Shown piece by piece: positions 1,571-26,337 of a stretch of 58,953 nt of DNA (the stretch's first letter is position 1; every line of letters begins with the position of its first letter). A model generated the notes under the pieces. That model was not told where the DNA came from. It worked only from the letters and a program-made list of their open reading frames with translations, and searched no databases. Source of the DNA: Fidelibacterota bacterium (GTDB lineage: Bacteria > Fidelibacterota > Marinisomatia > Marinisomatales > TCS56); the NCBI GenBank assembly GCA_013203115.1, contig JABMQW010000206.1:1-58953 (forward strand). Direction: 5' to 3'. The position numbers and the translations under genes are program-made.

Positions 1571-2338
1571 TTATTCCTGTCCGTCTAATTCTTTATTCCA
1601 TTGGACAAATTCATCTTCGGCGTCAGCGGTCTGATCGAATTTAAACATATTATATTTACCATCCTTTCGCACATTGATCTGCATTCCTTCAACCAGCGTG
1701 ATCCAATCTTCCAGACTGACTTCATAGGGACCGGCCACTTCGGTGGGTGCTTGAATTTCCTGCACCGGACCCAATTTGAATTTGGGCTTACCACCGGGCT
1801 TGGTTTCCTGTTGTTCCTGCTCCATATTCGATGGTTGATTCACATCAACCTTGCCTTCATAAACCAGCACCGAACTCTCATCTTCACCAGCCGTGGTACG
1901 ATAAACGGTACCGCGGATAGCTGCAACTGCGGTAGGAGTACGAATTGAAACATTTTTCTTTTCTCCGAAGGCCGCTTTAGCGGATACCCAGACATTACCT
2001 TTTTTCAGGGTGGCATTAAAATTCTTCACCATGGGTTTTACATTGGCTGCAGTCAGGACCAACTCGGAATTCTCTCCAATCCGTACCTTTCCACCGCCGG
2101 TGAGTGAAATTTCACAGCGGGACTTGGCGGCAGTACGAATTTGGTCATTCACATTGAGAGCTTGACGGGGCATGGCACGGGACCAGTCTTCGGACCCGAC
2201 CGTCAGGACTTCCACTTTACCGAGGGGAAGGGTGATCTTGCCAAATTCGGCGGCCAAACCAATTTGTGAAATCAAAATGAACGAAATAATTAAAGTAATC
2301 AGTGAATTTCTAACGGATTGTTTCACGATGCGCCCCAT
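1571..2338 (-). CDS. FecR-domain periplasmic protein (signal anchor plus FecR-like beta-sandwich)
   Basis: 255-aa ORF. N-terminal hydrophobic segment LITLIISFILISQIGLAA. FecR-like stretch LNVNDQIRTAAKSRCEISLTGGGKVRIGENSELVL...IRTPTAVAAIRGTVYRT. It ends 31 nt upstream of the CHASE2 cyclase start, suggesting one operon. Confidence 0.7.
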   Translation of the reverse strand: MGRIVKQSVRNSLITLIISFILISQIGLAAEFGKITLPLGKVEVLTVGSEDWSRAMPRQALNVNDQIRTAAKSRCEISLTGGGKVRIGENSELVLTAANVKPMVKNFNATLKKGNVWVSAKAAFGEKKNVSIRTPTAVAAIRGTVYRTTAGEDESSVLVYEGKVDVNQPSNMEQEQQETKPGGKPKFKLGPVQEIQAPTEVAGPYEVSLEDWITLVEGMQINVRKDGKYNMFKFDQTADAEDEFVQWNKELDGQE

Positions 2339-2432
2339 TAATTAATTTTATTAATTATCGTTGATCCAAATTTAACATAACCAGCCCAAATAACCACAGC
2401 CGGTCGTAACAAATTATCTCCGGCCATTTCAG

Positions 2433-2465
2433 AAAAAAACAAAGGGCGGGATAAACCGCCCTTTG
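2433..2465 (-). terminator. Rho-independent terminator of the giant ORF
   Basis: Perfect 10-bp GC-rich stem caaagggcgg (2440-2449) / ccgccctttg (2456-2465) with a 6-nt loop. On the minus-strand transcript it is followed by U7 (plus-strand A7 at 2433-2439). It starts about 20 nt after the stop codon at 2486-2488. Confidence 0.8.
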
Positions 2466-2485
2466 TCAGAATCGAGTAATTCAGA

Positions 2486-14400: not shown

Positions 14401-17400
14401 TGCTTTCCCGTAGTCCGCTATCGACCGCCGATACCTGGAAATAATAGGTCAGGTCATTTATCAGGCCGGTAACGGTGCAGTCGGTGCCCGGTTTGTCAAC
14501 ACGACCGACCGAGTCGCTGGGTTGCGGAACAAAATCAGGAGTCTGACTGACGTAAACGATGTAATGCGATAAGTCTGATTCCGTGTTAGCAATCCAGGAA
14601 AGGGTTACCTGCTGATCATCGACCAAGGCTGCCAAATCTGCCACCGGATCCGGGTGCGGTGAGACCGCATAAATACTTTCGTAAGCACCGAGGTCAGGGT
14701 TACTTTCACTGGGATTCACCCGGGCACTATCAGCCAGATCACGGCCGGTGATGGTGTAATTAGTAGCCGGAATCGTCGGCTCATATACGGTCAGGTCGCC
14801 GGCACCGATCGCCCAAGAGGCGCTGCTGAGACGGTAGTCACCGTTCTCGCTATCTTCAAACTGAGGATCGAAGTCAACAGTATTAGTGCCCGGATAAAAC
14901 AAACCGTCTTCAATCAGACAATTATGAACCTGCACATTGCCCTGATTCTGGGCATAGTTGATCTGCCCATCATAGGTGGGAGTCGGTGTATTATTCCAGA
15001 AGATTGAATTCTGAAAATAGCTCTGGGCATCCTGTACAAATACGGCGCCCCCAAGCAAATCATCGAAAGAATTATTCAGATTACAGGTGTTGTCGGCCAC
15101 GGTAACATGCTGCATGTACAGCTTGATATTTCTGATATGAACGGCACCACCGGCGGAGTTATTCTGCACGGTGGTCTTGTTGTCGGCAAACAGGGAGTTG
15201 GTTATTTTCACCCAGCCACTGCTTGGATTCCAGTCGTGGTATAGAGAAATAGCGCCACCACGGTTGGGAGCAATATTGTCAACGAATGTACAACGTTCAA
15301 CCGTAATTGGTGAAGCTTGTCCGCCGATCGCGCCCCCATATCCATCGCTGGTATGAGTCGTGTAGTTGCTGTCGAACACACAGGCGCTGAAGGTGGGTTG
15401 AGCCTGGTCCGATTCAATGTATACGGCACCACCCTTACCGTTAACATGGTTCCGGTAAAAAGTGCAGGACTCGAAAGCTGGTGCTCCGGAGCCCCAAACG
15501 TACACCGCGCCACCATGCTGTCCACTGTTGACCAAATAATTGTCCTCAAAACGGCAGTTGACAAACTTAGGACTGGCACCGGTCGTAACGGCGCCACCGT
15601 TGTTACCATCGGAGCTCTTACAGTTTTGGATTGTGAAACCAATCACTTGGGTATTAGTGTCATTGTTGCCGTTGAAAGAGATAAAACGGCGGAAACCACT
15701 ACCATCGATAGTGGTGGAATCAGGACCTTCCAAACTCATCAGAACGAATTGTTCAGCCGGTGCATCCAGTTCAGTATCATTATTTGTAATATAATCACCC
15801 GGCAGAACCATAATGGTATCACCGGCACTGAAATTGGCGTTGCCATCCCAGCCATATTTTATGTACTGAAGGGGCTGCTCAGGTGATCCGTCACCTCCGA
15901 TGGCAGCATCCACATCCACATACCAGATCGGCTCATTATACCCGGGGGTGGCTGCTGCAACCGGCGATGCTATTCCCGTGTAACCATCCGAATTATGGGC
16001 GGCCACCCGGAAATAATATGTGGTATCATTGTCAAGTCCTGTCACCAGATGGGTGTATTTGCCACCGGAAACAGCGCTGGCCAGTATTTGCGCAATCGAA
16101 TCACCGGCTGTAGCACTGAAAGTCAGACTATCGCCCTGGTAAACGATGAAGTAATCCAGGTTGGGATTATTGTCCGGCGGTAGTTCATCCCAGATCAACT
16201 GAACAGAATAGGAAGCCGCATCGGCCATGAGGCTCGGTACCTGCTGGGGATAAGGTGAAGTTGCCAATGAGTCTTCGTAGGCACCCAGGTCCGGATCGGA
16301 GCCGCCAGGAAATGGACGGACTCCGCCCAAGATATCAACAGTGGGAGCAGAATTACCATCGAATGCAGCCACACCGGCACCAATGGCCGGACTGTAATCA
16401 CTCAGGGTAAAGTCCAGATTGGCAGGATCCTCAAATTGGGGATCCAAGCTCAGGCTTTGATTATTACCATTGAACCAGTCAAACAGTTCACCGTTTTCAA
16501 CCAGGTTGGCCCTGGCCTCGATATTGGCGTCATAGTGTTCTGTGAAATTTTCTTCATTGAAAACACTACCATAATTGCCCCAGAGGATCGTATTGAACAT
16601 TACCAGTTGTTGCGGTATCCCACTCGTCGAATTGAGGTAAATGCCGCCACCGCGCGATTCATAATTACTGAAGGTGCTGTCATAGGCAATCGTGGTGTTG
16701 ATTATGCGTAATAATCCCTGGGACTCACTGTGAAAATAAATACCGCCACCTGCGGCCCAATTATTAGAAGAGAACGATTGGGCTGTATTATTGGCTATCA
16801 GACAGTTGATCAGGTCGGTACGAGCTTCCAGCGCCAGAGTGCCTCCATAGGCAGCCTGGCTGGATAGCGCCTCATTATCCCGGAAAATACAACGATTGAA
16901 AATGACCTGGGCGCTGGACACATCACTGTTCTGTTGAGCAAACACAGCACCACCGAAAACATTAAGGTGGAAGTCTTCAGAACCAACGGAATTACCAATA
17001 AATTTACAACCATAAAATTGGGCACCGCCTTGCCCGTTGATATGCACGGCGCCACCCACTTCAGCATGGTTATTGTAAAATACTACATCCCGGAAGATGG
17101 GAAATGAATTCTGGATCGTGACTGCGCCGCCACTAATTTCTTCACCATTCTGTAAAGTAAACCCAATTATCTTTTGCGTATAGCTGGAAGAATAGCCGAA
17201 GTGGAAATGGCGATGATTGCCATCGGATAGGACAATGGTGGAATCGGAGCCTTTTTCCGAGCGTACGACCAGGTTTTTGGGACCCAGGTCCAGTTCAAAA
17301 TTACCCACTCCCTGGTAGGTTCCTGGCAGAACCATGACTGTATCATTGCTGGAGGCTGCTGCATCGATTGCATCCTGGATTTTGATAAACGGATATTCCG

Positions 17401-20400
17401 GGCTGCCTTCAAAAGGTCCACTCCCGTCGAGGCTGTCGGCATCCACATACCAGATTGGTCCGGTATATTCCGGCGAAACCATCTGGCTAACAGCCATGGA
17501 ACTCTCGTGAACGGGATCATCGTCATCCACAGCGGTAACACCAAACCAGTAGTAAAGTTTGTTATTCAAATTGCGGATTGTATCATTGGTATTCAACCGT
17601 CCGGCAATAGTGTCAACCGACACCCAGTTGGTTGAATCCTCGCTCTGGTAAACATAATATTTCAAAACATCAAGCGAGTCAGATGCATTCCACGACAACT
17701 CAACGACCCGGTGTAGCGGATTGGTGACAACATTGGTGGGCGGGGATGGGTAGGGCGAGATCAGCAAAGCGTTCTCATAGGCGCCCAGATCCGGGCCATA
17801 AATCCCGCTGGTGGGCCGGGCGTTGCCATCGATATCGGTGGCAGGTGCCTGGATCGGGTTGCCATTCGCATCCTCGGCTATAAAATCTCCGGCACCAATT
17901 GCTGGGCTGCGATCATGGAGCGAATAACTGGCAAATTCCGGATCGGTGTTTAAATTACCATTCTCATAATCATCCGGGTCTAAATCATGCAGTATTGAAT
18001 AGGAAATGGCATGGGATACAGATCCATTGTAGAACATGATTTGATCGTTGATTGGTTCGTTACCATAAATAATACTGTTGAAAATGGTCAATTCATTCCC
18101 CTGGTTTCCTTCGATTTTAATTCCTGCCCCACCCGTGCTATTACCAAGATGCTGATTGTTGGCTATTGTGGAATTGATAATGATTGTCCGGCCCTGGTAC
18201 ACACCAATTCCGGCACCATTAGAAGGTCCAAGACTGACATTGGTGGTATTATCGGCAATTACTGAATTAATTACCGTAAGTAGATTACCAATATCAAAAT
18301 CCAAATATACACCCGCTGTACCGCAGGCTTCCCAACTATTAGCGCTAGTACTATTATATCGAACAATACTACGATCCAGGATCAACTTGCTGTTATTAGT
18401 AATATAAAAGGCACCACCATGAACGTAATCCGAAGCTGAGTTGTTGGTATTGTTCCGCAATTTGCAATCTACGAAGTATGCAATAGAATTGTTTATTAGC
18501 ACCACTGCGGCTGTACGATCGCCTGTACAAGAATCAATATAGCAATTAATAAATTTGGCTCGTGAGTTATTGAACTGAATCGCCGATCCCTGATTATTAC
18601 TACTACCACCAAAGGCAATTCGAAATCCGATTATCTGGGTGGTTGTATCCGTACCGTCGATGAAATCAAATAACCTTTTACTATTCTCACCGTCGATTAG
18701 TGTGGAATCCGGGCCACCACGGGCTTTCAGCACCAGATTTTTTACATTAAATCCGCCTCCACCGTCACTCACCGCAAAACGTAAATATTGATCATCTCCG
18801 GTATTATAACTACCAGGCAAGACCAGTACCGTATCATTGGCATTGGCCACATCAATAGCATCTTGAATCTGGGTATAGGGCGCCTCTGGGCTACCCTCAT
18901 ATAACGTACCACCATAAACTTCATTCACATACCAGTTCGGTCCCGTCCATTCCGGTACAGCCTGCGCCAAAGCAACACCACTGTACTCATCAGCATTTGA
19001 TTTAACCTGGACGCCTACATAATATGGTGTACCATTTACCAAATCAGTGACAGAATAATTAGTTGCAGAATTTGGCAAAGTTGCTACCGGTTCTATCGTG
19101 CCGGGTGATGTACCATTGTAAACAATGTATTCGGCTACAGTACCACTGCTGGGGGCTACCCAGGTCAAGTCAATCTGTTTATGGCCGGGAGTCGCGGTTA
19201 AACTACCCACTGGTTCAATCGGCGAATAGGCCACACGCACGGCTAATACTTGAGGTTCTGACCATGAGTTCATACCTGGAAATGGGTAATTGCCTCCCCC
19301 TCCCTCTCCAACGACCATCCGATGTGTGCTGACATTACGAATATGAACACCACCACCATTGGCCGTCGGACCATTATCATTACTTGCTTCCAACAACCAA
19401 TTTTTAATGCCATCCCACTGTTGGGGGGGGGCAATGCCAAATCTTTTCCATTCATTATTGGCAAATTCACTTTGATTATAAGCCATTGGACCATGGACTA
19501 TATTATCGGACAAGTCCTGATAAGAATTTAATTGGGTGGCAGTCGTCCAGTCCGAACCAATTCTGAAATTCTGTAACTCACTGATCACCGAGGTTGGTTT
19601 TAATTCCACCGCCATTAACCAGGACTCGGATGGAATTCCCGCATCGGATAAATCACCGGCCAAGTACAGCGCTTGATTCTTAACATCTTCGCTGCCGGTA
19701 TTGAAAATATATTCCGGATCGGTTTTAGACTGAGACGCATTCAGATGGAGCAATTCAACCAATTGCTCATGCATCCGGTTTGGTATTGCCATAATTTCAT
19801 CGGAAGCTTCGCTTTCGCGATTGTCAGTATTCAAGGCAGTTACGACAAAATAGTAAGTAGTATCATTACCCAGTCCCGTAATGGTAGTAAAAGTATCCGG
19901 TGGTGACTGCGCCAGCAGCGTGTCAATGCGATTGCCAATTGTTGTTTGGACCGGTGACGATTCCGAACTGTAGACATAGTAAGCGGCCAAGTCGGTGGGG
20001 TCGTTGGCAGCCCAGCGCAGTATAACTTGGGCACTGTCGGCCACGGCCGTCAGATCGGCGGGTGCATCCGGTGCTTCTTTCCGAGAAGCGTAAGCCAAAA
20101 ACCCGTCGTCGGGCAAGTTGTCCTGCCCGGTTTGATAATAATAGTAGATTGCATCAGGGTCCTCGATGGCATCCAAATCGATTTTGAATTCAACCCATCG
20201 CTCTCCGCCACCATAGACAAAGCTCAGATCATCGCTCCAGAGCGTATTCCAGTTGGAACCATTCCATTTCCGGTACGAAACATCTTCATTATAGAAATAC
20301 AGACTATAGTCTGCGCCAATTCCACGGTTTGGGAAACCAGTGGCAGAATTAGTATCCACATCAAAGTAGATATAGCGGTCTTCCCAGCGGATGCCGGTAG

Positions 20401-21550
20401 TAGCAGCATAATATCCGTAAAGATACAGGTCATCAGTGTAAATCTTGATTGAATCCAGGTCACCGAAAGGCGCATCGCCGACAGGATCACGCCAGGCTAC
20501 ATTAATATTCTGCCAGTCAGTATTGAAGCCATCCAGCGAAATATTGATCTGGGACGGTGTGACTGCTTGATTTTCGGAATAATCACTGAAACTGCCATCG
20601 GTATACTTGACCCGGATTCTATAATAATAGGTGGTGTCGTTTTCCAATCCGGTATCCAGGTAGTAGGAGTCTGAGGAGGTCCCTCCCATAATGCTGTCAA
20701 CAACAGTTGTGGGGTTGGCTGAAGTAGCGCGGTAAATATAATACCCGGCCAGATTCCCGGCACTGGAAGCCTGCCAGTTTAAGGATGCTTTCAGATCGCC
20801 GGTGGCAGCGTATAAATCTTTCGGCGCGTCAGAATAATTGATTTGAATTGCGAATTCAGGTTGTAAATATGATCCGTTATTGGTAATGGTGTGCCCGATC
20901 GTTCCATTACTGTTTTGCCATCCAACATGCAAGTTAGAAAAATCGGCGGATGACAATGAATTATATTGGAAAACAATTGTACCATCTTCATATAAAATTA
21001 TTTGAAATGTATTAGGATCATAACCACTGTAAAACGGAACTTCCCAGAATTCAATAATATGCCTGCTGTTGTCTGCATCGTAATAGGAATAGGCCTTATC
21101 CATATCGGCAGAGGGAAAGCCCCCATCCTTAAAATACAGATCGTCCCAGAAAACGGCCAACATGTTTCCGGGGGCACTGCTGGTTGGAAGCGACACGGCA
21201 TTATTATATGAATCACTAAGATTAGAAAAAGCAATAAATCCATTTGTGGAAATCCCGAATGAATTATAGGTGTTTCCATAATAGGGGAAGTCAAATCCGA
21301 TTGGAATCGCATTTTTAACTGTATCATCACCGGATAATGCCAATGGACCACCAAAACCAATGATCTCGACCCAATTATAGGTCGGTCCTCCGGCATCGTT
21401 ACTGCTAATCCATTCATACCCGTAGCTATCGCCATTGGCCATAGCAAATGTGGTTAACCCAATCACGGATAAGAGCGCCGCAATTAATACAGTACGGTAT
21501 GGTGAAATTCGATTGTAATTATTTCGACAATTAGCTGATTTGGTCTTCAT
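2486..21550 (-). CDS. Giant (6,354 aa) secreted mosaic surface protein: NIDO-like N-domain, FN3 repeats, 7-8 right-handed beta-helix modules, Big/Ig-like array, T9SS C-terminal sorting domain
   Basis: Single uninterrupted ORF with an ATG start. Signal anchor TVLIAALLSVIGLTTFAMA. FN3 signatures recur (L.W......L.GY.VY...DTTYYF.V.A). Beta-helix modules are rich in GGA(I/V)(Y/F) and N..F..N rungs. Big-like repeats read (D.FDN.V.D...V.W.I...TD.NG.A.V.L.T). The C-terminal motif is NFPNPFNPKTTI...SGIYFYV. My residue count was checked against nucleotide anchors at aa 707, 1362, 4819 and 5076. Confidence 0.92.
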   Translation of the reverse strand: MKTKSANCRNNYNRISPYRTVLIAALLSVIGLTTFAMANGDSYGYEWISSNDAGGPTYNWVEIIGFGGPLALSGDDTVKNAIPIGFDFPYYGNTYNSFGISTNGFIAFSNLSDSYNNAVSLPTSSAPGNMLAVFWDDLYFKDGGFPSADMDKAYSYYDADNSRHIIEFWEVPFYSGYDPNTFQIILYEDGTIVFQYNSLSSADFSNLHVGWQNSNGTIGHTITNNGSYLQPEFAIQINYSDAPKDLYAATGDLKASLNWQASSAGNLAGYYIYRATSANPTTVVDSIMGGTSSDSYYLDTGLENDTTYYYRIRVKYTDGSFSDYSENQAVTPSQINISLDGFNTDWQNINVAWRDPVGDAPFGDLDSIKIYTDDLYLYGYYAATTGIRWEDRYIYFDVDTNSATGFPNRGIGADYSLYFYNEDVSYRKWNGSNWNTLWSDDLSFVYGGGERWVEFKIDLDAIEDPDAIYYYYQTGQDNLPDDGFLAYASRKEAPDAPADLTAVADSAQVILRWAANDPTDLAAYYVYSSESSPVQTTIGNRIDTLLAQSPPDTFTTITGLGNDTTYYFVVTALNTDNRESEASDEIMAIPNRMHEQLVELLHLNASQSKTDPEYIFNTGSEDVKNQALYLAGDLSDAGIPSESWLMAVELKPTSVISELQNFRIGSDWTTATQLNSYQDLSDNIVHGPMAYNQSEFANNEWKRFGIAPPQQWDGIKNWLLEASNDNGPTANGGGVHIRNVSTHRMVVGEGGGGNYPFPGMNSWSEPQVLAVRVAYSPIEPVGSLTATPGHKQIDLTWVAPSSGTVAEYIVYNGTSPGTIEPVATLPNSATNYSVTDLVNGTPYYVGVQVKSNADEYSGVALAQAVPEWTGPNWYVNEVYGGTLYEGSPEAPYTQIQDAIDVANANDTVLVLPGSYNTGDDQYLRFAVSDGGGGFNVKNLVLKARGGPDSTLIDGENSKRLFDFIDGTDTTTQIIGFRIAFGGSSNNQGSAIQFNNSRAKFINCYIDSCTGDRTAAVVLINNSIAYFVDCKLRNNTNNSASDYVHGGAFYITNNSKLILDRSIVRYNSTSANSWEACGTAGVYLDFDIGNLLTVINSVIADNTTNVSLGPSNGAGIGVYQGRTIIINSTIANNQHLGNSTGGAGIKIEGNQGNELTIFNSIIYGNEPINDQIMFYNGSVSHAISYSILHDLDPDDYENGNLNTDPEFASYSLHDRSPAIGAGDFIAEDANGNPIQAPATDIDGNARPTSGIYGPDLGAYENALLISPYPSPPTNVVTNPLHRVVELSWNASDSLDVLKYYVYQSEDSTNWVSVDTIAGRLNTNDTIRNLNNKLYYWFGVTAVDDDDPVHESSMAVSQMVSPEYTGPIWYVDADSLDGSGPFEGSPEYPFIKIQDAIDAAASSNDTVMVLPGTYQGVGNFELDLGPKNLVVRSEKGSDSTIVLSDGNHRHFHFGYSSSYTQKIIGFTLQNGEEISGGAVTIQNSFPIFRDVVFYNNHAEVGGAVHINGQGGAQFYGCKFIGNSVGSEDFHLNVFGGAVFAQQNSDVSSAQVIFNRCIFRDNEALSSQAAYGGTLALEARTDLINCLIANNTAQSFSSNNWAAGGGIYFHSESQGLLRIINTTIAYDSTFSNYESRGGGIYLNSTSGIPQQLVMFNTILWGNYGSVFNEENFTEHYDANIEARANLVENGELFDWFNGNNQSLSLDPQFEDPANLDFTLSDYSPAIGAGVAAFDGNSAPTVDILGGVRPFPGGSDPDLGAYEDSLATSPYPQQVPSLMADAASYSVQLIWDELPPDNNPNLDYFIVYQGDSLTFSATAGDSIAQILASAVSGGKYTHLVTGLDNDTTYYFRVAAHNSDGYTGIASPVAAATPGYNEPIWYVDVDAAIGGDGSPEQPLQYIKYGWDGNANFSAGDTIMVLPGDYITNNDTELDAPAEQFVLMSLEGPDSTTIDGSGFRRFISFNGNNDTNTQVIGFTIQNCKSSDGNNGGAVTTGASPKFVNCRFEDNYLVNSGQHGGAVYVWGSGAPAFESCTFYRNHVNGKGGAVYIESDQAQPTFSACVFDSNYTTHTSDGYGGAIGGQASPITVERCTFVDNIAPNRGGAISLYHDWNPSSGWVKITNSLFADNKTTVQNNSAGGAVHIRNIKLYMQHVTVADNTCNLNNSFDDLLGGAVFVQDAQSYFQNSIFWNNTPTPTYDGQINYAQNQGNVQVHNCLIEDGLFYPGTNTVDFDPQFEDSENGDYRLSSASWAIGAGDLTVYEPTIPATNYTITGRDLADSARVNPSESNPDLGAYESIYAVSPHPDPVADLAALVDDQQVTLSWIANTESDLSHYIVYVSQTPDFVPQPSDSVGRVDKPGTDCTVTGLINDLTYYFQVSAVDSGLRESNFGQELNATPNSFHLQVVELLHNNAISNPFNEQGYPFNNAYKKVKHQSLYLAEELTAAGIPDNAWISGVDLKPSFISGDIDNLRLGYTFTAGTELNSFENTSIFYGPEMFVVEDITADEWMRFYTEPIQINSNNWVLEYSHDNDYYGFNGGAYLRQVDGMRGRRGYSDVGTWPFSGMSNEVPEDQVLAVRVVYSAIEPVDNLQAVPGHHQVEITWDAPVSGTVTRYLVYSGQNADSLALSDTATTNTITITGLNNREEYYIAIQVESDAGEFSTMIIIEASPMYVGPVWYVDPVSGTFNGEGSPEEMAQSIKPMIMASSDGDTILLKPGTYSGFDNRNLDFQDGWDQGGVRDLVLIGEKGADSTIIDISNSGSFLDVSSGESIASKLIGITIQNANSGAIIISNNSQLVVKNCVFRDNSSSSGGAIILSNASDLRVRSVLFEGNSASCPGGAISIGNSTADIKNSIFYDNYAGCYGGAISIDEDQSVLQMVHCLILDNSAESGPGGIMYQSMNPQVNVYNSIFWGNTQNPGFSNDINEASIVDHCILQEGSAVINLGTNWTFDPMITDVENGNFTLSEYSPAIGLGLEDYNDFWQGAFTLVPASDYFSSDRPNPVGSLPDLGPIEHERAEPRRWVYSVAPAPAGNDSNDGISAPFLTIQRAIDETDMLDTVEVAAGTYVGDDNKNLDFGGMDIVLRSTDGPDTTIIDCENSGRGFEFSSGEPPSAKVIGFTVRDGNADEGGAIAIYPDTLGNPTSPTFWNLKLVDCGVTGEGGAIYADNSNSLFANLVIANNSADSAGVAYLDGGSVTFLNNTIVGNRSNDSNGIVYVAGEHNVLNSILWDNTVNGNEIWFDDGTRSLIDVRYTNVMGGYDGEGNLNLRPGFVNVADTNFHLAEWSPMIGAADTALFTSLDYDLNPRTISGTTWPDMGAYEHAGMEPDLTNYTNMDWYVSTTGDDGSGTGSDGSPFWSIQYTTYYALYSDTIRVEAGIYNQNATVKDKPIAFKATDGPATTVVDGGGNSRVFDISGSGPGGFYLEGFTIQNGVADFGAGINLQNTGGTIRNAVISGNSAIAGNGGGLRSFVDDSTQTYTLSIDNTIITANSSTTYGGGLSTGQTTVNISGCEISNNTSEHIGGFFFGGDRASFQMSDCIISGNQANGSIGGGGFSSSIGTVTRTLIVGNEANLNPSGGGTEAGGIEIWAGASVVFDNCTFSDNSAEYGGGLTVGSSAVATVTNSILWGNSPEQLALHLTDIEVGTIDISYSLAQGGEDSVYIAPDAGSPILTWGAGNVDRDPRFVGVDDYHIMANSAAVNAGDPTDTDTDYTVRDMGVYPYLNNYSGPDWYSDAVFGSDSDGTGSSGDPFASIQAPINFASPADSIFVEEGTYYENVKFRGNYHKLVGVQGSANTIVDGGGNGPVFDLSGTGVDNPTVLEGFTITNGYAYRGGGIYSNGSSLVLRNLIVSENTATAFGGGAALRNVDPVFIPTVLVENCDFINNHSDYMLGGLYVKDCSTTIDSIKVLGNTADSSYAGLYITGNVGGGFTVANSIFHGNQTNGFAAAGGFDSFAFGTVSYSIISDNSANLEMSGSHSGGFSVWEGSSVDFINCTIANNTADHGAGLTTGNGGAATLRNCVVFGNTPDQLAGDTDQGQGGTITVNYSDVEGGEAGPNLSPESLFYWGIGNIDADPLFVDAANSDFELQLLSPCVDTGDPADTFDPDGSVRDMGALPLFRNIVGGNTGGNNVVITGDTTTIILTDLIVDPNDSLIVEPGSNVYVGDGVKINILGTLDAPGSPAEPISFSTLHEGEEFGGVVLRGGSSPGREIPEYSYLSISDVANDSIPLTITESAILNHMTIAGNDRSQPSLSVGETVTLNYSILESSVNATTLTENHSFVNDTTHFVDLAGGYLSLLDTSIAIDTGIAEAGTNLDPDSTYSDAGAYYHDQSAYPTVTATVIYPAFGDTIIANPDISTVNFNGLSIRSQLLNEYGRAKTNAIVDWDFNTINGSLLNNNTVSTDLDGFVLNTFYTSTTAGDLNQFTIISDGVQDTSGFFRVIPGAPDSLALPAEFSLDTAMIQLDELTLAVDVYDQFDNLVSDGDTVNWTIVPVVGDGDGFTIVTTPTFTDANGQATVDLTTDPNTTLVVGDAIRLEAESNDSTVQTMLITIVPDDIYNLSMPESLTADTIDLSADVASIVITATMIDTFENPLEGVDISWSITTDSSPDSALSSSITPTDAAGVATVELTTGTVAGYEYWVEAWINEESLMAALNNQANTDAIRVAGNVTTTNKKGSVSTRQITLPVNIGQPVFPDNWDREAIYDLEDTTNVIRIVPGVPDTVIFEIATDTVMTRQDSIEFVVDIFDQYDNLVADSSLVTWELGIIFGGGEGGLSFSDSTSITVGGSANVVLITTDTLWLMAGQHYEVIATCEGIESRSEPIHIVNDDPYNLIVDDAYDRTPEADANTVELEVTIFDRFDYPLEDVPVYWSIIQGTGGGLENGDLLDTTLTYEAIATNTLTTATLSGSEYRVRIWVDNVGGYTLSRSTGGESVFKAQPAASTGKLAFSAMPETPLSVLSAGSRTDFQLDDTTDVITVLPGVPAGVVFDLTNDTTLTQLEALPVAVTITDQYGNLVADSTSVDWVIEGVVITGFVLDTVTSVTTNGIAINVLRTAPTAALGTTVTVKAQSGTAFISSNDVVVVADDPYNLTVDDAYDRLPVADNNTVPMTVTLIDTFENVLDAVPVYWSIIEGTGGSFDNTDLLDTTLTGVGGIATNTLTTVTLSGSEYRVRIWVENVGGYTFSRSIGGESVFSVLPAASTGKLAYSTMPETPLSVLSAGSRTDFYLDYTTDIITVLPGVPAGVVFDLTNDTVMTQLEALPLVVTVTDQYGNMVIDETIIDWTIEGVATTGFNLDQNTTLATNGIGINVLRTDPAAVLGTTVTVKAQSGTAFISSNNVVVVADDPYNLTVDDAYDRTPVADANSVPLSVTIIDTFENVLDAVPVYWSIIEGTGGNFDNSDLLDTTLTGVGGIATNTLTTANTSGSVYRVRIWVENVGGYTFSRSIGGESVFSVLPAASTGKLAFSAMPETPLSVLSTGPRTDFYLDYTTDVITVLPGAPVTITLDNPDKIRYLFQGDQDSIIIHVFDAFDNSVADTSVVNWNPVYTGGEYSIDMQENVTTAGRAKLNLTADQNAPWLAQIDFAILVESVFDANYAEDSITYIIDDKIPPGAVIGLTITPAEWDSVNSFDLSWSNPPEHSGVKGAHYVIDTNTYYYQEEPGIIAVDDIALFENGISTIGVWLEDNAANKDIENIVSMVAKWDNVAPDAFTLDDPVPSATPGWLKISDPVFSWNHSSDATAGLRHYRFELTGTVTYTIDPEQDTLKLDDPLAEGSSYTLSVFAVDSAYNETESNTVTFGVDLTLPKVTEHNEANDKPIDTEFTLDISFKDDVSGVNTIICKYRVSGETDWNTSTKTSTVAVGVVDDKTFTVQSQFVTHTGVEYKFELTDNAGNIYYYPDDKEYYSVQVRENDGFSSTTMWSQGIPNGSSVAAYQLISFPGVPTNTSPHEILVTASGFGAYDNTKWRFFTYETGEWIEFANIPDIEKSKAYFLIVMDGGKNINTGVVRTVKTEVPESVSLTNGDWAFIGNPFNFTIPLENVYDENGLSVAGDENFQSYIGGAWTGVTALEPWQGYIFKSATAQTLFINPNIENGGTAKILDNAVNSLEDDEWLIDITARNGYARDLHNRVGVLHRAQDTYDPMDNFEPPLLPGGISLRIDNHDWPANGDIYTTDIKSINPEGSFWDMEVVASDKKYSVALNFAGLEDLPEEYDIFLIDKSIGTAQNLRGRPDYYYAIGSAKSTRNLRLVAGTRDFVNANNAGVALYPESYSLSQNFPNPFNPKTTILVSIEDDAFVDLVIYNLLGEVVTTLAREEYLPAGYYNYIWAGKNDHGRRVASGIYFYVSRIKSPSGKMLLNSTKKMILVK
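2489..2767 (-). other. T9SS type-A C-terminal sorting domain (aa 6262-6354 of the giant protein)
   Basis: QNFPNPFNPKTTILVSIEDDAFVDLVIYNLLGEVVTTLAREEYLPAGYYNYIWAGKNDHGRRVASGIYFYVSRIKSPSG. This matches the canonical Por-secretion-tail / FlgD-Ig-like pattern from my memory of the family. Confidence 0.75.
5081..7915 (-). repeat. In-frame tandem coding repeats of about 774 nt (257-258 aa; two Ig-like domains per unit), 3.6 units
   Basis: Every unit starts with DD(P/I)YNL. Unit 0 (diverged) is aa 4546-4818 (7097-7915). Unit 1 is aa 4819-5075 (6326-7096). Unit 2 is aa 5076-5333 (5552-6325). Unit 3 (partial) is aa 5334-about 5490 (5081-5551). Units 2 and 3 share runs of more than 100 nt of near identity. 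The track shows identical shadow ORFs at 5104, 5878 and 6652 (774-nt spacing). Confidence 0.9.
8576..18949 (-). other. Array of right-handed parallel beta-helix modules (7 complete plus 1 degenerate), interspersed with FN3 in its first half
   Basis: Module spans in nt: 17765-18949, 16265-17467, 14675-15940, 12521-13552, 11606-12502, 10406-11569, 9221-10387, and degenerate 8576-9217. In the best-conserved copies each opens with ..WYV(D)..GSPE.P...IQ.AID.A...DT(V/I)...PG.Y. Those copies close with DP.F.....D(F/Y).L...SPAIGAG....PDLGAYE; the later modules are degenerate at both ends. Confidence 0.7.
13805..14365 (-). repeat. Unassigned ~188-aa module, copy 2 (aa 2396-2582)
   Basis: FHLQVVELLHNN...KHQSLYLAEELTAAGIPDNAWISGVDLKPSFISGDIDNLRLG...EDQVLAVRVVYSAIEPV aligns along its whole length with aa 593-780. 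Confidence 0.7.
19211..19774 (-). repeat. Unassigned ~188-aa module, copy 1 (aa 593-780)
   Basis: MHEQLVELLHLN...KNQALYLAGDLSDAGIPSESWLMAVELKPTSVISELQNFRIG...EPQVLAVRVAYSPIEPV. It is a paralogue of aa 2396-2582 and, like copy 2, sits between two FN3 domains. Confidence 0.7.
19423..19431 (-). repeat. G9 (coding-strand C9) homopolymer inside the giant ORF
   Basis: Plus strand reads ttGGGGGGGGGcaatg. Coding strand reads GCC CCC CCC CAA = A707-P-P-Q710. It is the longest G/C homopolymer I noticed in the window. Confidence 0.9.
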
Positions 21551-21610
21551 AGGACACTCTCAAAAAATTTGTTTGGTGTTGAATTCTTTCATTGGAAATA
21601 AAAACTATAA

Positions 21611-22336
21611 TTAATCCGGTAACACCGGTGGATTTGGCAGAACCGCCGGCTCCTCTTCGCCTAATAGAACATAAGCCGCTCCGGCACCCCCGACTACAAT
21701 TAATCCGGTCCAAAACAGCCAGCCCAGGCCACCTTTTTCCTTGGCTGGAGCTACGGCTGCTACTGGCTGCAACCCGGCTCTTTGCGTGGCCAGTAATTCT
21801 TCCGGTGGATTAAGACTCATGATTTTCCAGGCCAGGATTTCAATCTCATTCAACAATCCATCGATCTCACCTTTGTAGGTGGCACTGACAGTCTTTTCCG
21901 TCTTGCCGCTTTCCACTGAGAACATCTTGGCGTCAATCGTATAACTGTTTCCCAGTTTTCCGAACGATCCGGCGATCATGTGCTGGACGCCCAGCAGGGC
22001 GCCGACTTCGGCGGCACATTCGGCGCTGGTACACCCGGATTGTTGAAAGCCTTGCTCATCGAGGATTTCATTCATCTGGTTACGTTCCACCAGAATCAAG
22101 GCGTTGGTACCGGCCAGTTCGGAAGTAAAGCGATCCGTCAGGGTCTGGGCTTCCATCTGGGAGATTCCCCGACCTTCAAAATCAAGGATGGCCACCGTCT
22201 CCTTTTCCTGACCGGATGCTACTACAGGCAGTGTTACTTGTAAAATTAATACACTCAGGAAAAGGCGCATTCCTGTGGCAAAAATGGATCTATTCATAGC
22301 TCTCTCTCTTTTCCCCGACTGGGGAAGCTGTTTCAC
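21611..22336 (-). CDS. CsgG/FlgO/LpoB-like (TolB-N-like fold) envelope protein with a C-terminal membrane anchor
   Basis: 241-aa ORF. The real start is probably an internal Met (MNRS.. at 22297 or MRLFLSVLILQ.. at 22270). Motif: VAILDFEGRGISQMEAQTLTDRFTSEL..LVERNQMNEILDEQGFQQSGCTSAECAAEVGALLGVQHMIAGSFGKLGNSYTIDAKMFSVESGK. C-terminal hydrophobic helix LGWLFWTGLIVVGGAGAAYVLLG. It ends 60 nt upstream of the giant ORF start. Confidence 0.6.
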   Translation of the reverse strand: MKQLPQSGKRERAMNRSIFATGMRLFLSVLILQVTLPVVASGQEKETVAILDFEGRGISQMEAQTLTDRFTSELAGTNALILVERNQMNEILDEQGFQQSGCTSAECAAEVGALLGVQHMIAGSFGKLGNSYTIDAKMFSVESGKTEKTVSATYKGEIDGLLNEIEILAWKIMSLNPPEELLATQRAGLQPVAAVAPAKEKGGLGWLFWTGLIVVGGAGAAYVLLGEEEPAVLPNPPVLPD

Positions 22337-22362
22337 AGATGGCTTTTAGACGGAAGCGAGCT

Positions 22363-22986
22363 TCAGCCCTCATTAGCTTCCGCTAGTAATTCTTCAAATA
22401 TTTGGGATAATTCCCCTTCAAAATCCTCACCTTCATGAAAGCCCTGTTTAATCAGACGAATGGTCCGATACTTATCGATTATAAACAGGCGTGGCAGGGT
22501 TGCTACCCCATATTTTTCTTTCACAACACCTCGATTATCATTTAAAACCTGAATTGTTATCCCTTTATCTGCAAGAAACGGGCCGGATTTAGGCGAATCC
22601 TCAAACCCGGGTGAATTACGGGTCGCTTCGGTTATATCAATAAGGAAAAATTTAATCTTTTCACTGCCGTATTTCTGGTAAAGATTTTCCAGGAGCGGCA
22701 GTTCTTTCATACAAGGTTTACACCAGGTGGCAAAGAAGCTCATCACCACAACGTGACGATCAGGCTGAGTTTTAAAGCGTCTTAAACGCTGATCTTTTTC
22801 AATCGTCCAGTTCTTTAAAAATTCAAATTTGGCCGGGGCATACATCAAAGCCCAACTGGGAGCGATATCGTCTATTTTAAATGAAGTCTCTTTAACCGCT
22901 GCATCAACCGGAATAATCACCTCCTCCTGAGCCCAACTCAGACTCAAGAGCGCTGTAAAAAGCAATATTAATACTCGTATTATCAT
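22363..22986 (-). CDS. TlpA/ResA-like periplasmic thiol:disulfide oxidoreductase (thioredoxin fold)
   Basis: CxxC active site in VVVMSFFATWCKPCMKELPLLENLY. Signal anchor MIIRVLILLFTALLSLSWAQ. The track ORF extends to 23055 but would then overlap the upstream gene, so the ATG at 22986 is preferred. Confidence 0.8.
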   Translation of the reverse strand: MIIRVLILLFTALLSLSWAQEEVIIPVDAAVKETSFKIDDIAPSWALMYAPAKFEFLKNWTIEKDQRLRRFKTQPDRHVVVMSFFATWCKPCMKELPLLENLYQKYGSEKIKFFLIDITEATRNSPGFEDSPKSGPFLADKGITIQVLNDNRGVVKEKYGVATLPRLFIIDKYRTIRLIKQGFHEGEDFEGELSQIFEELLAEANEG

Positions 22987-23027
22987 TCTAATGTTATCTT
23001 TCGTATTTTTATAATTTGGAAAAGCGG

Positions 23028-23894
23028 TCAATCGAGTAAGAATAATACCCGGCAATCCCGCAGTACATTATTGGCGGAGTTGGCCTGGTTGATTTTCATT
23101 ACATCGGCGTTGGCAATAACTACATCAGTACGGTTGGCACCACTAACACTGACGGCTTTGACAACCAATGGACTGCCCTTAACCCGCATATCTTCCTGAG
23201 CGGCTTCCAGAGATTTGGAATAGCCGGCCACACCATTCGTGACGGCATACTCGCGGGTATAGTTACCTGGTCCGTAAATGGTACCCATGTTTTGATCCAT
23301 AATTTTGGGCGCCATCGCGGGGCGAATACCCAATCCCCGGGCATCGATGATTATGCCAGTCACGGCGGCGGCGGTCGGTTCTACGGCCGTTGTGGAAAGC
23401 ACTGGTGTTACTGCTCCACCAGCGGCTGTTGGTTCAGCAAATCCGATGGACGGCGTAATAACTTCTGATATTCCACTCATGGAAACAGCCATTGTCAATT
23501 CCACCGATGTGTCGCTTAAATAGCGCGTCTCACCCACTTGGTAAGCACCGCGAATAACCCCGGAAACACTTTCCTTGACGACTTCATCGGCCATCCGGTT
23601 GCGCATGGTGGTCTCACTGGTGAGAGTAATTCCATTGACCATCTCAACCAACTGACGGCGGGCATCCACTTTCGCGGCACGAATAGCCATCGCCCGGGCC
23701 TGGCCGGCGTTGACGGCATATTCCGGAATCGCCCCGATACCATTGGCGGTAATAATACCTTGGGAATAATTTATGGCTCCATTATCGGTTTCTTCGATCA
23801 CAGCGCCGGGAACTACCCCATAGCCATACTGGGCCAGACTTAAAGAACAACATGTTAACAGGATAATAAAAAGTTTCTTCATTGCTGCCTCCAT
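23028..23894 (-). CDS. LPP20-family (FlgP-like) lipoprotein-like protein with an additional conserved C-terminal module
   Basis: Signal peptide MKKLFIILLTCCSLSLAQ (alternative start 23882). LPP20-type motif NAGQARAMAIRAAKVDARRQLVEMVNGITLTSETTMRN..VSGVIRGA. Second module: TGIIIDARGLGIRPAMAPKIMDQNMGTIYGP...VKGSPLVVKAVSVSGANRTDVVI. Confidence 0.6.
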   Translation of the reverse strand: MEAAMKKLFIILLTCCSLSLAQYGYGVVPGAVIEETDNGAINYSQGIITANGIGAIPEYAVNAGQARAMAIRAAKVDARRQLVEMVNGITLTSETTMRNRMADEVVKESVSGVIRGAYQVGETRYLSDTSVELTMAVSMSGISEVITPSIGFAEPTAAGGAVTPVLSTTAVEPTAAAVTGIIIDARGLGIRPAMAPKIMDQNMGTIYGPGNYTREYAVTNGVAGYSKSLEAAQEDMRVKGSPLVVKAVSVSGANRTDVVIANADVMKINQANSANNVLRDCRVLFLLD

Positions 23895-23895
23895 C

Positions 23896-25008
23896 TTATT
23901 GAACGATCTCAGCGGTGATTCGATTGCCGCTCAGACCGATAATTTTAAAGCTGAATCCATCGGGCGAGGTACGGACCAGACCCATGGCCAGATCCTGGGC
24001 TTTACCCTCAAATTCGATTTCATATTCAGCAACACCGTCATTCAGGCTCTTGGCATAGGCGTTCCGAATACCCGGAACAGTCTGCGCCTTCAGAAACGAT
24101 TCGAACAGCATGTACGAACCGAAATCGGCATTACTGACTACCATATAAATCTTTACAAAATTTGCTTGTTGAGTACTCCATTTGCGAATCAGTTGCTTAA
24201 TTATCTGCTGACCCAAATCCTCGGCCGCCTGATTAGTAGCATTCACCCCGGCCGTTGATTCGGAAATATGTGGTTTTTTTCCGCGTGCCTGGGGAACTAC
24301 TGCCAGAATTTCTCCCGTATCCGCTCGAATAATCTTGGCATTCATATCGGCCTGCCCGGAATACATATTATATATTTTCCCGCCTGAGCTGATCTTGATC
24401 GTTCCAACCACGATCACCTCTGCTCCCAGCATAGCGGCTATCTTGGCTGCTGCGGAAACATTTCCTTCCAGAGCCTGGGCATAGTCAGGTTTACCTTGCA
24501 GGGCGGCTACCAGTTGGCGATCGACAACATCAAAACCTTTTTCATAAAACATGGCCAGTAATTTTGTTTCGGCAAAATCGGTGGGGATTTTATCAATTAA
24601 GTTTTCTTCCTTCACCATGAACATTATTTTGGGCCGATTCATACTATTCAAAAGCACTTGCAGGGCGGTTTCATCCTGGAGGATCTGGTCCAGGATCTGG
24701 GTCACCTCCGCCTCAATGGTGACCTCCCACAAACCGTCCGGCCCCTGGCTCTCACTGAGGACCTGGAAGGTCTTCACAAATCCCTGGGCTTTGGAATAGA
24801 TGTTATCGGAAAAAACCATGGCATTCTTTACCACGGTTTCGGATGACATGATCGCACCAAGCCCATTTTCCACCGCATTACGCTTGGCCTGCTCGATGGC
24901 CGCATCACGATTTAATGCCATTCCCTCTCCGGTAACTTTCTGTGTCTGGGCACACAAAAATGTGGCCCCAATTACTAATAATAAAATGATGTGATTTGAT
25001 TTTTGCAT
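23896..25008 (-). CDS. FlgT-like / LPP20-like N-domain plus CsgG/TolB-N-like middle-domain periplasmic protein
   Basis: 370 aa. Signal peptide IILLLVIGATFLCAQ. N-module: KVTGEGMALNRDAAIEQAKRNAVENGLGAIMSSETVVKNAMVFSDNIYSKAQGFV. Middle module: RPKIMFMVKEE...AETKLLAMFYEKGFDVVDRQ...AAMLGAEVIVVGTIKIS...IIRADTGEIL. The family assignment rests on motif resemblance only. Confidence 0.5.
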   Translation of the reverse strand: MQKSNHIILLLVIGATFLCAQTQKVTGEGMALNRDAAIEQAKRNAVENGLGAIMSSETVVKNAMVFSDNIYSKAQGFVKTFQVLSESQGPDGLWEVTIEAEVTQILDQILQDETALQVLLNSMNRPKIMFMVKEENLIDKIPTDFAETKLLAMFYEKGFDVVDRQLVAALQGKPDYAQALEGNVSAAAKIAAMLGAEVIVVGTIKISSGGKIYNMYSGQADMNAKIIRADTGEILAVVPQARGKKPHISESTAGVNATNQAAEDLGQQIIKQLIRKWSTQQANFVKIYMVVSNADFGSYMLFESFLKAQTVPGIRNAYAKSLNDGVAEYEIEFEGKAQDLAMGLVRTSPDGFSFKIIGLSGNRITAEIVQ

Positions 25009-25212
25009 GTTCCCTCGACGAAGCTTTGTCTATTAGATCAATTTAAATTATTCATTTCACGTACAGAATGCAATGACATTCCCGGGTATTGTGATGTTAA
25101 TCAATAACAGACGATTGTGATATACCTCAATTTTCTTGCTGAGATATTTCATTTCCGCTGATTTCCGCTTATATTCGGTGCACATTATGTAAACACTACA
25201 GGGGAATCAAAC

Positions 25213-26337
25213 ATGAAAAATGTCCTCAGAATAATCTTATCCATTAGTTTGACACTATTATTACTCAACTGTTCTCAAAAACCGCAGAGTGCGATGGATA
25301 CACCCGAGTACCATTTTAAAGCCGGTCTGCGGTCGGTCGATAGCGGAAACTTTGCCGGTGCACGGACTTCTTTCCAGCGATCAATCGACCTGGATCGGAA
25401 ATTCGCTCCCGGTTATGCTGGTCTGGGCCTGGTAAGTGCTCTGGAGAAAAATGCTAAGGAAGCAAAACTCAATGTTAACAAGGCGTTAATGTACGCTGCC
25501 AAAGACCCTGAAGTCCTGGCCCTTGCTGGCCGGGTGTGGATTGAACTGCGCGATCTAGACCGTACCTGGTTTAATAAGGCTGAAGACTATTTAACCAAAG
25601 CCTTGCGCCAGAATGAAAATCATGAAGCAGCACTCTACTATCTCGGGCTGGCAAATCTGTATCAATACAATTTCCGCAATGCCGAAGGCTTCTTTAAGCG
25701 CGTCGTGGATGGCAAAGGTGAGTACGCTGCCAAAGCTGATGCGAAATGGGAACTGTCTCAAAAGGTCGTCCGGGCCGTTCCAGGCACGATGGCCGGTAAA
25801 AAAATAGCCCTTCAGGAGAAGATCACCAGGGCCGATCTGGCGGTGCTCTTGGCTGAAGAATTGAAGGTCGGTGAATTGATCTCCAAGCTGCCGCCACCTC
25901 CGCTCGGATTCCAAACTCCCGGCCAGATGGCTGCCAATCAAGCCGAGCTTAAACCGGCCGATACCCAGGGTCACTGGGCCGAAGGCTGGATCAATGAAGC
26001 GATGGAATATGGCATTCTTGATTTGAGTCCCGACGGCAATTTCTATCCCAATGAATACATCTCAAGGGCTAACTACGCTATGGCGGTCCAAAGACTGCTA
26101 GTAATTGCCACTCGCGACAACAGCCTGGAAACACGCTATTTTGGTGAAAGCCTCTCTCGCTTTTCCGACGTGCCAAGCTCGCATTTTGCCTATAATGCCA
26201 TGGCCCTGTGCACCGAACGGGGAATCATGAAAACGGATGTAATCACTTCCCGCTTCGATGCTGGCGGAAATGTCAGTGGCGCCGATGCCTTGTTAATCAT
26301 TCGTACATTGCAGAATTCATTACGGCAAACGTTTTAA
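25213..26337 (+). CDS. Lipoprotein with N-terminal TPR repeats and C-terminal SLH (S-layer homology) repeats
   Basis: Lipobox-like LLLLNCSQ. TPR-like helices span aa 30-170. SLH-type segments: ITRADLAVLLAEEL, DTQGHWAEGWINEAMEYGILDLSPDGNFYPNEYISRANYAMAVQRLL, FSDVPSSHFAYNAMALCTERGIMK...VSGADALLIIRTL. Confidence 0.7.
   Translation: MKNVLRIILSISLTLLLLNCSQKPQSAMDTPEYHFKAGLRSVDSGNFAGARTSFQRSIDLDRKFAPGYAGLGLVSALEKNAKEAKLNVNKALMYAAKDPEVLALAGRVWIELRDLDRTWFNKAEDYLTKALRQNENHEAALYYLGLANLYQYNFRNAEGFFKRVVDGKGEYAAKADAKWELSQKVVRAVPGTMAGKKIALQEKITRADLAVLLAEELKVGELISKLPPPPLGFQTPGQMAANQAELKPADTQGHWAEGWINEAMEYGILDLSPDGNFYPNEYISRANYAMAVQRLLVIATRDNSLETRYFGESLSRFSDVPSSHFAYNAMALCTERGIMKTDVITSRFDAGGNVSGADALLIIRTLQNSLRQTF

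Follow-up and report, generated by a model that had tools for sequence, protein, structure and literature searches.

A non-flagellar envelope module related to FlgT, FlgP and FlgO, and its association with a giant surface protein gene in Marinimicrobia

Positions 1 to 58,953 of contig JABMQW010000206.1 of a Fidelibacterota bacterium (assembly GCA_013203115.1), analysed as a whole (the window), carry four minus-strand genes, here called A, B, C and D, directly upstream of a giant open reading frame (ORF). In our judgment these four genes probably represent, in Marinimicrobia, an envelope module that is widespread, non-flagellar and homologous to FlgT, FlgP and FlgO. The module is likely an oligomeric, wall-tethered scaffold. 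The giant protein would be co-expressed with this scaffold, which probably carries it, accompanies its export or allows it to be monitored. The core module consists of A, B, a D protein with a CsgG/FlgT_M-FlgT_C/FlgO fold, a TPR-SLH lipoprotein, a FecR-domain protein and, often, a CHASE2 sensor. This reading is built on the homology of the proteins, on gene order and spacing, and on the distribution of the module with and without the giant gene. An original prediction, made from the letters of the window, had gone further and proposed a ring or scaffold dedicated to the giant protein.

Protein A (25008..23896, minus strand, 370 amino acids) had been described as FlgT-like, and its three-domain fold bears this out. 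It is periplasmic, with an N-terminal domain resembling FlgT_N and LPP20, a middle domain of the CsgG/GNA1162/PelC fold, and a C-terminal domain. It carries a signal peptide, has no cysteine that is conserved, and is not a lipoprotein. An AlphaFold (AF2) model made with 18 homologues as input (predicted local distance difference test score 79) was compared to the PDB with Foldseek. The top two matches are FlgT chains with probability 1.0, namely 8z5n (E 3.5e-9), from the cryo-electron microscopy structure of the Vibrio LPHT-ring, and 3w1e (E 1.4e-8), the FlgT crystal structure. The alignment to FlgT is full length over 389 aligned columns. The next matches fall on the middle domain and are GNA1162, Cj1090c, CT253, CsgG, HP1454, PelC and LptE.

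FlgT_N is matched at E<1e-3 by 46 of 70 diverse members of the A family, and FlgT_M and FlgT_C by none of the 70; the same two Pfam families find no match in the window's own A. The members above the FlgT_N cut-off include those of two loci or sequences labelled L100 (30.8 bits) and P0180 (30.3 bits). The NCBIfam model for LipL46 also matches A nearly full length (E 1e-12), at a score far under the model cut-off. The 120 best homologues of A are 70–100% identical to it, and the named ones are assigned to Marinimicrobia, Neomarinimicrobiota or Fidelibacterota. The family extends far beyond these. A profile search of 1.84 billion cluster representatives returned 5365 representatives of clusters made at 50% identity with E<=1e-3 and 220 with E<=1e-30, and many members are full length at 26–37% identity. 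Five loci (L095, L106, L118, L119, L121) have two A-family paralogues each, which suggests local duplication of the FlgT-like gene.

Protein B (from 23894 or 23882 to 23028, minus strand, 288 or 284 amino acids) is secreted and has two domains joined by a disordered Ala/Thr/Pro linker. The N-terminal domain is of the FlgP/LPP20 type, and the C-terminal domain is like domain D2 of Treponema pallidum Tp0624. A profile of 20 homologues matches solved FlgP chains through the N-terminal domain, 9hmf_C of Campylobacter jejuni at 1.4e-9 and 8z5n_2 of Vibrio at 2.6e-5, so the earlier assignment to LPP20/FlgP stands. The profile of the C-terminal domain matches Tp0624 residues 131-263 (7e-6), and Tp0624 also ranks first in Foldseek (E 5.5e-13, 22% identity). 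No lipobox cysteine was found: the signal-peptide region has no conserved cysteine among 20 aligned homologues. The sole invariant cysteine is Cys277, near the C-terminus, and other lineages without the thioredoxin retain its motif C[RK]V[LM]F in their two-domain B homologues. B Cys277, Cys75 of the FecR protein and Cys333 of the TPR-SLH protein are each 97–100% conserved in Marinimicrobia and lie outside the signal peptides. These single cysteines could form intermolecular disulfides within a complex.

Protein C most likely starts at an ATG at 22986 and runs to 22363 on the minus strand (207 amino acids), the ORF being open from 23055. Its Pfam matches are AhpC-TSA (49.7 bits), Redoxin (43.9 bits) and Thioredoxin_8 (40.7 bits), which together with Thioredoxin are above the cut-offs, and the NCBIfam ResA model matches at 3.4e-16, under its cut-off. 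The WCKPC motif, from which an oxidoreductase embedded in the cluster had been correctly recognised, does not vary among 63 homologues. By eye, the hydrophobic N-terminus MIIRVLILLFTALLSLSWA looks like an export signal. C is accordingly predicted from its sequence to be a secreted periplasmic TlpA/ResA-type thiol:disulfide oxidoreductase.

Protein D extends from a GTG at 22336 or an ATG at 22297 to 21611 on the minus strand (241 or 228 amino acids). It has a signal peptide, a domain of the CsgG-N/LpoB fold, a linker and a C-terminal transmembrane helix. The CsgG family matches with 32.5 bits (cut-off 20.8), covering only profile positions 33-98 of 210, and LpoB matches above its cut-off with 26.5 bits. 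A sequence search of D against solved structures gave nothing significant. The signal peptide has no lipobox cysteine for N-terminal lipidation. All 38 Marinimicrobia homologues carry a CX4C motif, and their consensus retains the hydrophobic C-terminal segment. D would thus be a membrane-anchored periplasmic domain. It had been called a CsgG/FlgO/LpoB-like protein with a membrane anchor. The fold and the anchor were right, and the analogy to the CsgG outer-membrane channel or ring fails: about a third of the CsgG profile is covered, the lipidation cysteine is missing, and the C-terminal anchor is alpha-helical.

Four same-strand genes had been placed before the giant ORF (21550..2486, minus strand, 6354 amino acids), and we recovered them with the same gaps. 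The gaps are 1 or 13 nucleotides between A and B, 41 between B and C, 26 or 65 between C and D, and 60 AT-rich nucleotides between D and the giant ORF (21551..21610). The only strong terminator on the strand follows the giant ORF, as claimed. This intrinsic terminator, at 2467..2438 (minus strand), has a 12-bp stem with 7 G-C pairs and a T-run, and it folds at -22.4 kcal/mol (z = -5.3), with 0 of 200 shuffles as stable. A consensus scan also flagged a 5-bp hairpin across the D stop codon (21628..21616). It was rejected as an attenuator or terminator, the D–giant junction folding no better than shuffles (z = +0.66). The other two intergenic gaps are essentially unstructured by the same comparison. 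Therefore, there is no terminator between A, B, C, D and the giant gene, and the length of about 22.6 kb from 25008 to the terminator at 2438 also agrees with the first estimate. We infer that the five genes are co-transcribed. The divergent intergenic region upstream of A (25009..25212) is presumed, by position alone, to hold their promoter. Sigma-70-type and Bacteroidetes-type -7 (TAnnTTTG) motifs are not enriched in the window (32 of the latter were found against 38 expected), and neither 25009-25212 nor the D–giant gap contains one, so no promoter can be placed. An Rfam scan of the whole window gave no match.

The claimed unit of four genes and the giant gene overlooked conserved partners on both sides. 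Upstream and divergent is the gene for the TPR-SLH protein, a probable lipoprotein (25213..26337, plus strand). Downstream of the terminator, a FecR-domain periplasmic protein (2338..1571, minus strand), which is a conserved part of the module, adjoins a CHASE2-domain sensor whose gene begins at 1539 and runs past the window edge at position 1 on the same strand. A Bacteroidetes-type -7 motif, TAAATTTG, is found at 2367-2374 (minus strand), past the terminator and ahead of the FecR start codon, and FecR and CHASE2 might have a promoter of their own there in this genome.

The arrangement was followed through 80 species-representative Marinimicrobia genomes or loci (L005-L084). The order is a divergent TPR-SLH lipoprotein, then A, B, C, D, the giant ORF, FecR and the CHASE2 cyclase. 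In 77 Marinimicrobia loci, A and the TPR-SLH gene are neighbours. An ORF of at least 1264 amino acids stands directly after D in 32 of the 33 loci that are informative, meaning those with D and at least 3 kb downstream; most of these ORFs extend beyond the fetched flank. The median gap between D and the giant ORF is 3 nucleotides (n = 32). FecR follows the giant gene in L003, L013, L050 and L059, and the gap between them is 4 nucleotides in three of the four complete cases. Within Marinimicrobia, then, the set keeps company with giant cargo genes. Over all the loci surveyed, about 170, flagellar families are not recurrent neighbours. A sub-lineage of Marinimicrobia has rearranged loci (L052, L057, L078; L047, L058, L082), with the order giant, TPR-SLH, A, B, C, or FecR, an 848-amino-acid protein, TPR-SLH, A, B, all on one strand. 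In the first of these orders the giant gene is still adjacent.

The contig ends within 10 kb downstream of A in 54 of the 80 species contigs; in 21 of the 54, the break falls within the ORF after D. This fits a repetitive giant gene that breaks assemblies. It follows that the locus is systematically under-annotated and that the true length of the giant is hidden in most genomes. Strings of small same-strand ORFs follow D in L015, L018, L023 and L033, and these may be frameshifted giant genes.

The module is also found outside Marinimicrobia. We collected 80 metagenome loci with 20 of the closer A sequences, a sample biased to one part of the A family. The neighbour counts are lower bounds, as many contigs are only 2–5 kb. 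Within 6 kb of A, B is found in 41 of the 80 loci, a D-like gene in 41, TPR-SLH in 28, FecR in 27, an ORF of at least 1200 amino acids in four, and a thioredoxin in one. The usual order is B, TPR-SLH, A, a CsgG-like gene and FecR on one strand, followed by housekeeping genes. The D-equivalents here are CsgG-family proteins, mostly of about 300–370 amino acids. Among 34 of them, CsgG is matched by 33, LpoB by 21, FlgT_C by 10, FlgT_M by 6 and FlgO by 4, and the L100 protein matches CsgG with 135 bits over profile positions 5-208 of 210. Together with the matches of A and B, all Pfam families of the Vibrio H-ring are represented in the cluster: FlgT_N, FlgT_M, FlgT_C, FlgO and LPP20/FlgP. The 25 commonest Pfam families of the 148 neighbour ORFs from the 80 loci include no flagellar one; the commonest extra neighbour is GNA1162-like.

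Individual loci show how the module varies. L087 was fetched via P0276, from a protein cluster in which one member is labelled Marinimicrobia; besides A it encodes TPR-SLH, an LPP20-like B, FecR, a CHASE2 cyclase and a CsgG-TPR protein, and a giant gene is absent. L086 has A, B and a CHASE2 cyclase; L089 has A with GNA1162-like, CsgG-like and SLH genes; A stands by itself in L088 and L090. In L147 and L151, the gene right after A encodes a large surface protein, of 2127 amino acids with PKD and SprB repeats in the former and of at least 1926 amino acids in the latter. A 596-amino-acid FlgD_ig protein near the core in L100 was considered as a relative of the giant and dropped, since the homology does not extend beyond the C-terminal domain (CTD). 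Taken together, the giant-free core in many lineages and in L087 suggests that the module predates the giant gene and ranges more widely, the giant gene being apparently a later insertion into it.

The thioredoxin and the CX4C motif of D come and go together. Both are present in 38 of 38 Marinimicrobia cases, and outside that phylum the only locus with the thioredoxin, L123, also has a CX4C-bearing D. The motif occurs in two of the 34 D-like proteins of the non-Marinimicrobia loci, the other being L133, in a different sequence context. From this co-variation, the CX4C motif of D is likely a client of C. L123 (contig Ga0180434_10010483, 1-6745) has the order CHASE2, B, TPR-SLH, A, FecR, D with CX4C, and thioredoxin. 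A giant gene is absent, and the locus may show the arrangement that preceded its insertion.

Other variants concern the LPP20-like and D-like genes. Two or three small LPP20-like genes (about 140–260 amino acids) stand directly upstream of A in L125, L126, L130, L136, L141, L147, L148 and L152, sometimes with a further B-like gene and with a CsgG-like gene downstream. These loci recall the HP1454-Lpp20-HP1457 cluster of Helicobacter pylori, HP1454 being also a Foldseek match of A. Longer D-like ORFs are found upstream of A in L091, L095, L096 and L151 (690–770 amino acids) and in L118-L120 (437–475 amino acids). A few D-like proteins have extra domains, which are FGE-sulfatase, NHL or beta-propeller, PEGA and CarboxypepD_reg.

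The giant protein has fn3 domains, internal repeats detected by BLAST, and a conserved C-terminal module of about 430 amino acids made up of about 340 amino acids and a CTD. The CTD is borderline type-A-like of the type IX secretion system (T9SS), scoring 22.3 bits with TIGR04183 against a cut-off of 23. The CTDs of PorU and PorZ also match, Pfam FlgD_ig reaches 23.9 bits against 27, and homologues of the C-terminal module carry a precomputed PF18962 assignment. Giants in the same position in different species share only repeats and the last ~430 amino acids, at 30–32% identity. Their bodies differ in domains, with FG-GAP and fn3 in L001 and Kre9_KNH and Laminin_G_3 in L003. The last 439 amino acids (window 2489-3805) correspond to the C-terminal ~440 amino acids of ~615-amino-acid T9SS type-A proteins from Bacteroidota, KSB1 and Zixibacteria, with 33–36% identity over the full query. 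Two such proteins (L171, 10001-11848; L172, 10001-11926) are encoded beside Ser/Thr kinases, FHA/PP2C and PAAR proteins. Neither locus has A, B, CsgG or FecR, and we rejected the idea that the C-terminal ~430 amino acids are a docking domain specific to the module.

The TPR-SLH protein matches Pfam SLH in two stretches (48.6 bits, cut-off 20.8) and TPR_2. The cysteine at the end of its signal peptide is invariant in 75 Marinimicrobia homologues. It is a candidate tether between the outer membrane and peptidoglycan or a cell-wall polymer. The FecR-domain protein (Pfam FecR, 61 bits) has its best NCBIfam matches to Lsa33 and LipL45. The CHASE2 domain of the truncated sensor scores 155 bits, and the full-length CHASE2 proteins of relatives, which follow FecR in L003 and L087, carry Guanylate_cyc, a class III cyclase.

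From these parts, the following working model can be drawn. A, B and D would most likely form an oligomeric periplasmic scaffold, by analogy to their flagellar homologues, which ring under the outer membrane. The C-terminal helix of D would hold the scaffold at one membrane. The lipidated TPR-SLH protein would tie it to the cell wall and, presumably, to the outer membrane. The pairing of B with an SLH protein parallels the fusion of D1/D2 to an OmpA-like domain in Tp0624 (PMC5104382). The FecR-domain protein and the CHASE2 cyclase would serve as the sensor and output of the scaffold. In Marinimicrobia, the TlpA-like oxidoreductase and the giant T9SS-type gene would have been inserted between D and FecR and kept phylum-wide. 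Because its gene is inside the operon, the giant would be made together with the scaffold; probably the scaffold would then carry it or stand beside it in export, or the FecR–CHASE2 pair would monitor it by way of the scaffold.

A number of observations weigh against this reading. The global TM-score between A and FlgT is only 0.31, which we attribute to differing domain orientations. The window's A is below the Pfam thresholds (FlgO 20.7 bits; FlgT_N 19.3 against 28.8 bits), and its sequence search against PDB structures gave nothing significant; FlgT was reached by fold comparison alone. B as a single sequence scores 14.3 bits with LPP20 against a cut-off of 25.9, and its L100 homologue reaches 25.3. 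FlgP and FlgO are anchored in the outer membrane by N-terminal lipidation, which B and D do not have. The Marinimicrobia D is far shorter than the CsgG-like partner elsewhere, so that the two may differ in function, and the rearranged lineage has no D homologue after C or nearby. In the window, a strong terminator lies between the giant gene and FecR. Finally, since the C-terminal module of the giant has homologues away from the module, it gives no independent evidence of the module as a docking site.

The same facts can be read with the giant as a mere co-regulated passenger. In that case, the module would tether the envelope or outer membrane to the wall in a general way, with its own FecR/CHASE2 sensor and no physical relation to the giant protein. 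The wide occurrence of the core without a giant favours this, as do the SLH and OmpA-type wall-binding domains that go with the B-type unit (PMC5104382), the identity of at least 70% among the 120 best matches of A, which is as expected of a housekeeping envelope protein, and the housekeeping genes that flank the locus. We find it possible but on balance doubtful, because the giant keeps its place between D and FecR throughout the phylum, separated from each by about 3–4 nucleotides, even as its sequence is replaced.

That same linkage, with its ~3-nucleotide gaps and its persistence through turnover of the cargo sequence and through rearrangement, speaks for the original prediction in full, which was a four-protein ring or scaffold with redox support, specific to the giant T9SS cargo and serving its export, anchoring or load-bearing. 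The large surface-protein genes directly after A in the two unrelated loci L147 and L151 could be counted on the same side. We consider it unlikely. The A family, often accompanied by the complete core, occurs without an ORF of at least 1200 amino acids within 6 kb in 76 of the 80 non-Marinimicrobia loci, and L087 is giant-free as well; the giant-free loci contradict a dedicated role as the ancestral function. In addition, D is not a channel, and the C-terminal module of the giant occurs elsewhere without the module.

A distinctly less probable extension of our own reading is that the module is a free-standing non-flagellar counterpart, possibly the evolutionary source, of the H-ring and basal disk. 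It would then be a wall-tethered ring platform at the base of a giant T9SS surface fibre, with load or occupancy converted to a cyclic-nucleotide signal through FecR and the CHASE2 cyclase. Secretion of an amyloid or unfolded substrate of the CsgG type, with A, B and FecR as periplasmic accessories, is suggested by the full-length CsgG-family D-equivalents outside Marinimicrobia (33 of 34 match CsgG, as with the 135 bits in L100). It is very unlikely given the partial CsgG profile and helical anchor of the Marinimicrobia D, the lack of CsgA/B, CsgE and CsgF among the 25 commonest families of the 148 neighbour ORFs, and the ten D-like proteins with FlgT_C, which suggest an architecture like that of FlgT and not that of a channel. 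A cryptic or remnant flagellar H-ring or basal-disk locus would account for folds and Pfam families that are those of FlgT, FlgP and FlgO, but it is scarcely credible: no flagellar gene was found among the window ORFs scanned, as first noted, or among the 25 commonest neighbour families, B and D lack lipoboxes, the constant partners are SLH, FecR and CHASE2 rather than FlgH, FlgI, MotX or MotY, and a study of SAR406 genomes mentions flagella only for other bins (PMC5596340).

Two further genes of the window deserve mention. A 762-amino-acid DUF3160 protein at 56644-58932 (minus strand) has a Por_Secre_tail CTD at 28.1 bits against the Pfam cut-off of 27, so the genome encodes clear T9SS type-A cargo. 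A 504-amino-acid ORF at 34440-35954 (plus strand) has no Pfam match at E<=1e-5.

We know of no settled account of the origin of the lineage-specific outer rings of high-torque motors, to which FlgT, FlgP and FlgO belong. A cluster that has all the H-ring families without flagellar neighbours, and whose relatives run to thousands of protein clusters, offers a candidate pool for recruitment to flagella. Marinimicrobia (SAR406) are abundant and uncultured. In them, the locus pairs a highly conserved envelope protein, A, with a giant surface protein of fast turnover and a cyclic-nucleotide sensor. Such a pairing is expected for particle attachment, phage interaction or surface sensing. Pairs of FecR and CHASE2 (PMC5192318) and the richness of SAR406 in Por-type CTD proteins (PMC5596340) were known already. 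The combination is apparently undescribed; literature searches on the combination of families and on Marinimicrobia giant proteins or T9SS found no description of the module.

A close comparison is with the Vibrio H-ring (3w1e, 8z5n). A has the FlgT fold, the N-terminal domain of B is homologous to FlgP, and the D-equivalents match CsgG, FlgT_M, FlgT_C and FlgO; in both systems the three genes go together and their products are periplasmic. Under the outer membrane, FlgT assembles into a C26 ring, and FlgP and FlgO, which are lipoproteins, into C58 rings (10.64898/2025.12.02.691832). Our module differs in that no LP-ring, MotX/Y or other flagellar gene is near it, that B and D lack the lipidated N-terminal cysteine, and that B has an extra Tp0624-D2-like domain. 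The partners are instead a TPR-SLH lipoprotein, FecR and a CHASE2 cyclase, to which the Marinimicrobia operon adds the thioredoxin and the giant. By context, by lipidation and by the Pfam thresholds of the window's own proteins, the module is thus outside the flagellar families. The FlgP of the C. jejuni basal disk (9hmf) is the closest sequence-level structural relative of the N-terminal domain of B and shares with it a ring-forming LPP20-family domain. That FlgP is a small lipoprotein in a flagellar context, whereas B is two-domain, non-lipidated and non-flagellar.

Two comparisons come from spirochetes. In Tp0624 (5jir), the D1/D2 tandem was called previously uncharacterised and is fused to an OmpA-like wall-binding domain (PMC5104382). 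B matches the D1/D2 unit, and a wall-binding module is associated with it in both cases. There, the OmpA-like domain is in one chain; here, the counterpart is the separate neighbouring TPR-SLH protein. Among Leptospira proteins, A resembles LipL46 and the FecR protein resembles Lsa33 and LipL45, with scores so far under the equivalog cut-offs that they are distant relatives only. LipL46 is a lipoprotein that has been studied as an adhesin and antigen.

CsgG, LpoB, GNA1162, PelC and LptE share a periplasmic alpha/beta fold with D and with the middle domain of A, and CsgG, PelC and related folds oligomerise. Compared with CsgG, the window's D is without most of the profile and without a lipid anchor, and an outer-membrane pore is unlikely. 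The FecR–CHASE2 adjacency is also seen in the Burkholderia BiofilmReg operon, where a periplasmic FecR-domain protein with LysM lies beside a CHASE2 sensor and the output is a histidine kinase and response regulator (PMC5192318). In our case, a class III cyclase takes the place of these outputs, and the pair forms part of the FlgT/FlgP/CsgG-like module.

For the giant gene itself, a parallel in organization is the sprCDBF operon. In Flavobacterium johnsoniae, the giant T9SS adhesin SprB is co-transcribed with the accessory proteins SprC and SprD and the PorP-like SprF. As predicted for Marinimicrobia, a giant T9SS-type surface protein is in one operon with envelope accessory genes. The accessory proteins are unrelated in the two cases, and the CTD of SprB is type-B, against the borderline type-A-like CTD here. 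The claim that the set is an accessory module new for T9SS cargo therefore needs to be divided: sprCDBF is a precedent for co-transcribed accessory genes as such, and an accessory set of the kind seen here, built on relatives of FlgT, FlgP and FlgO, is apparently unprecedented.

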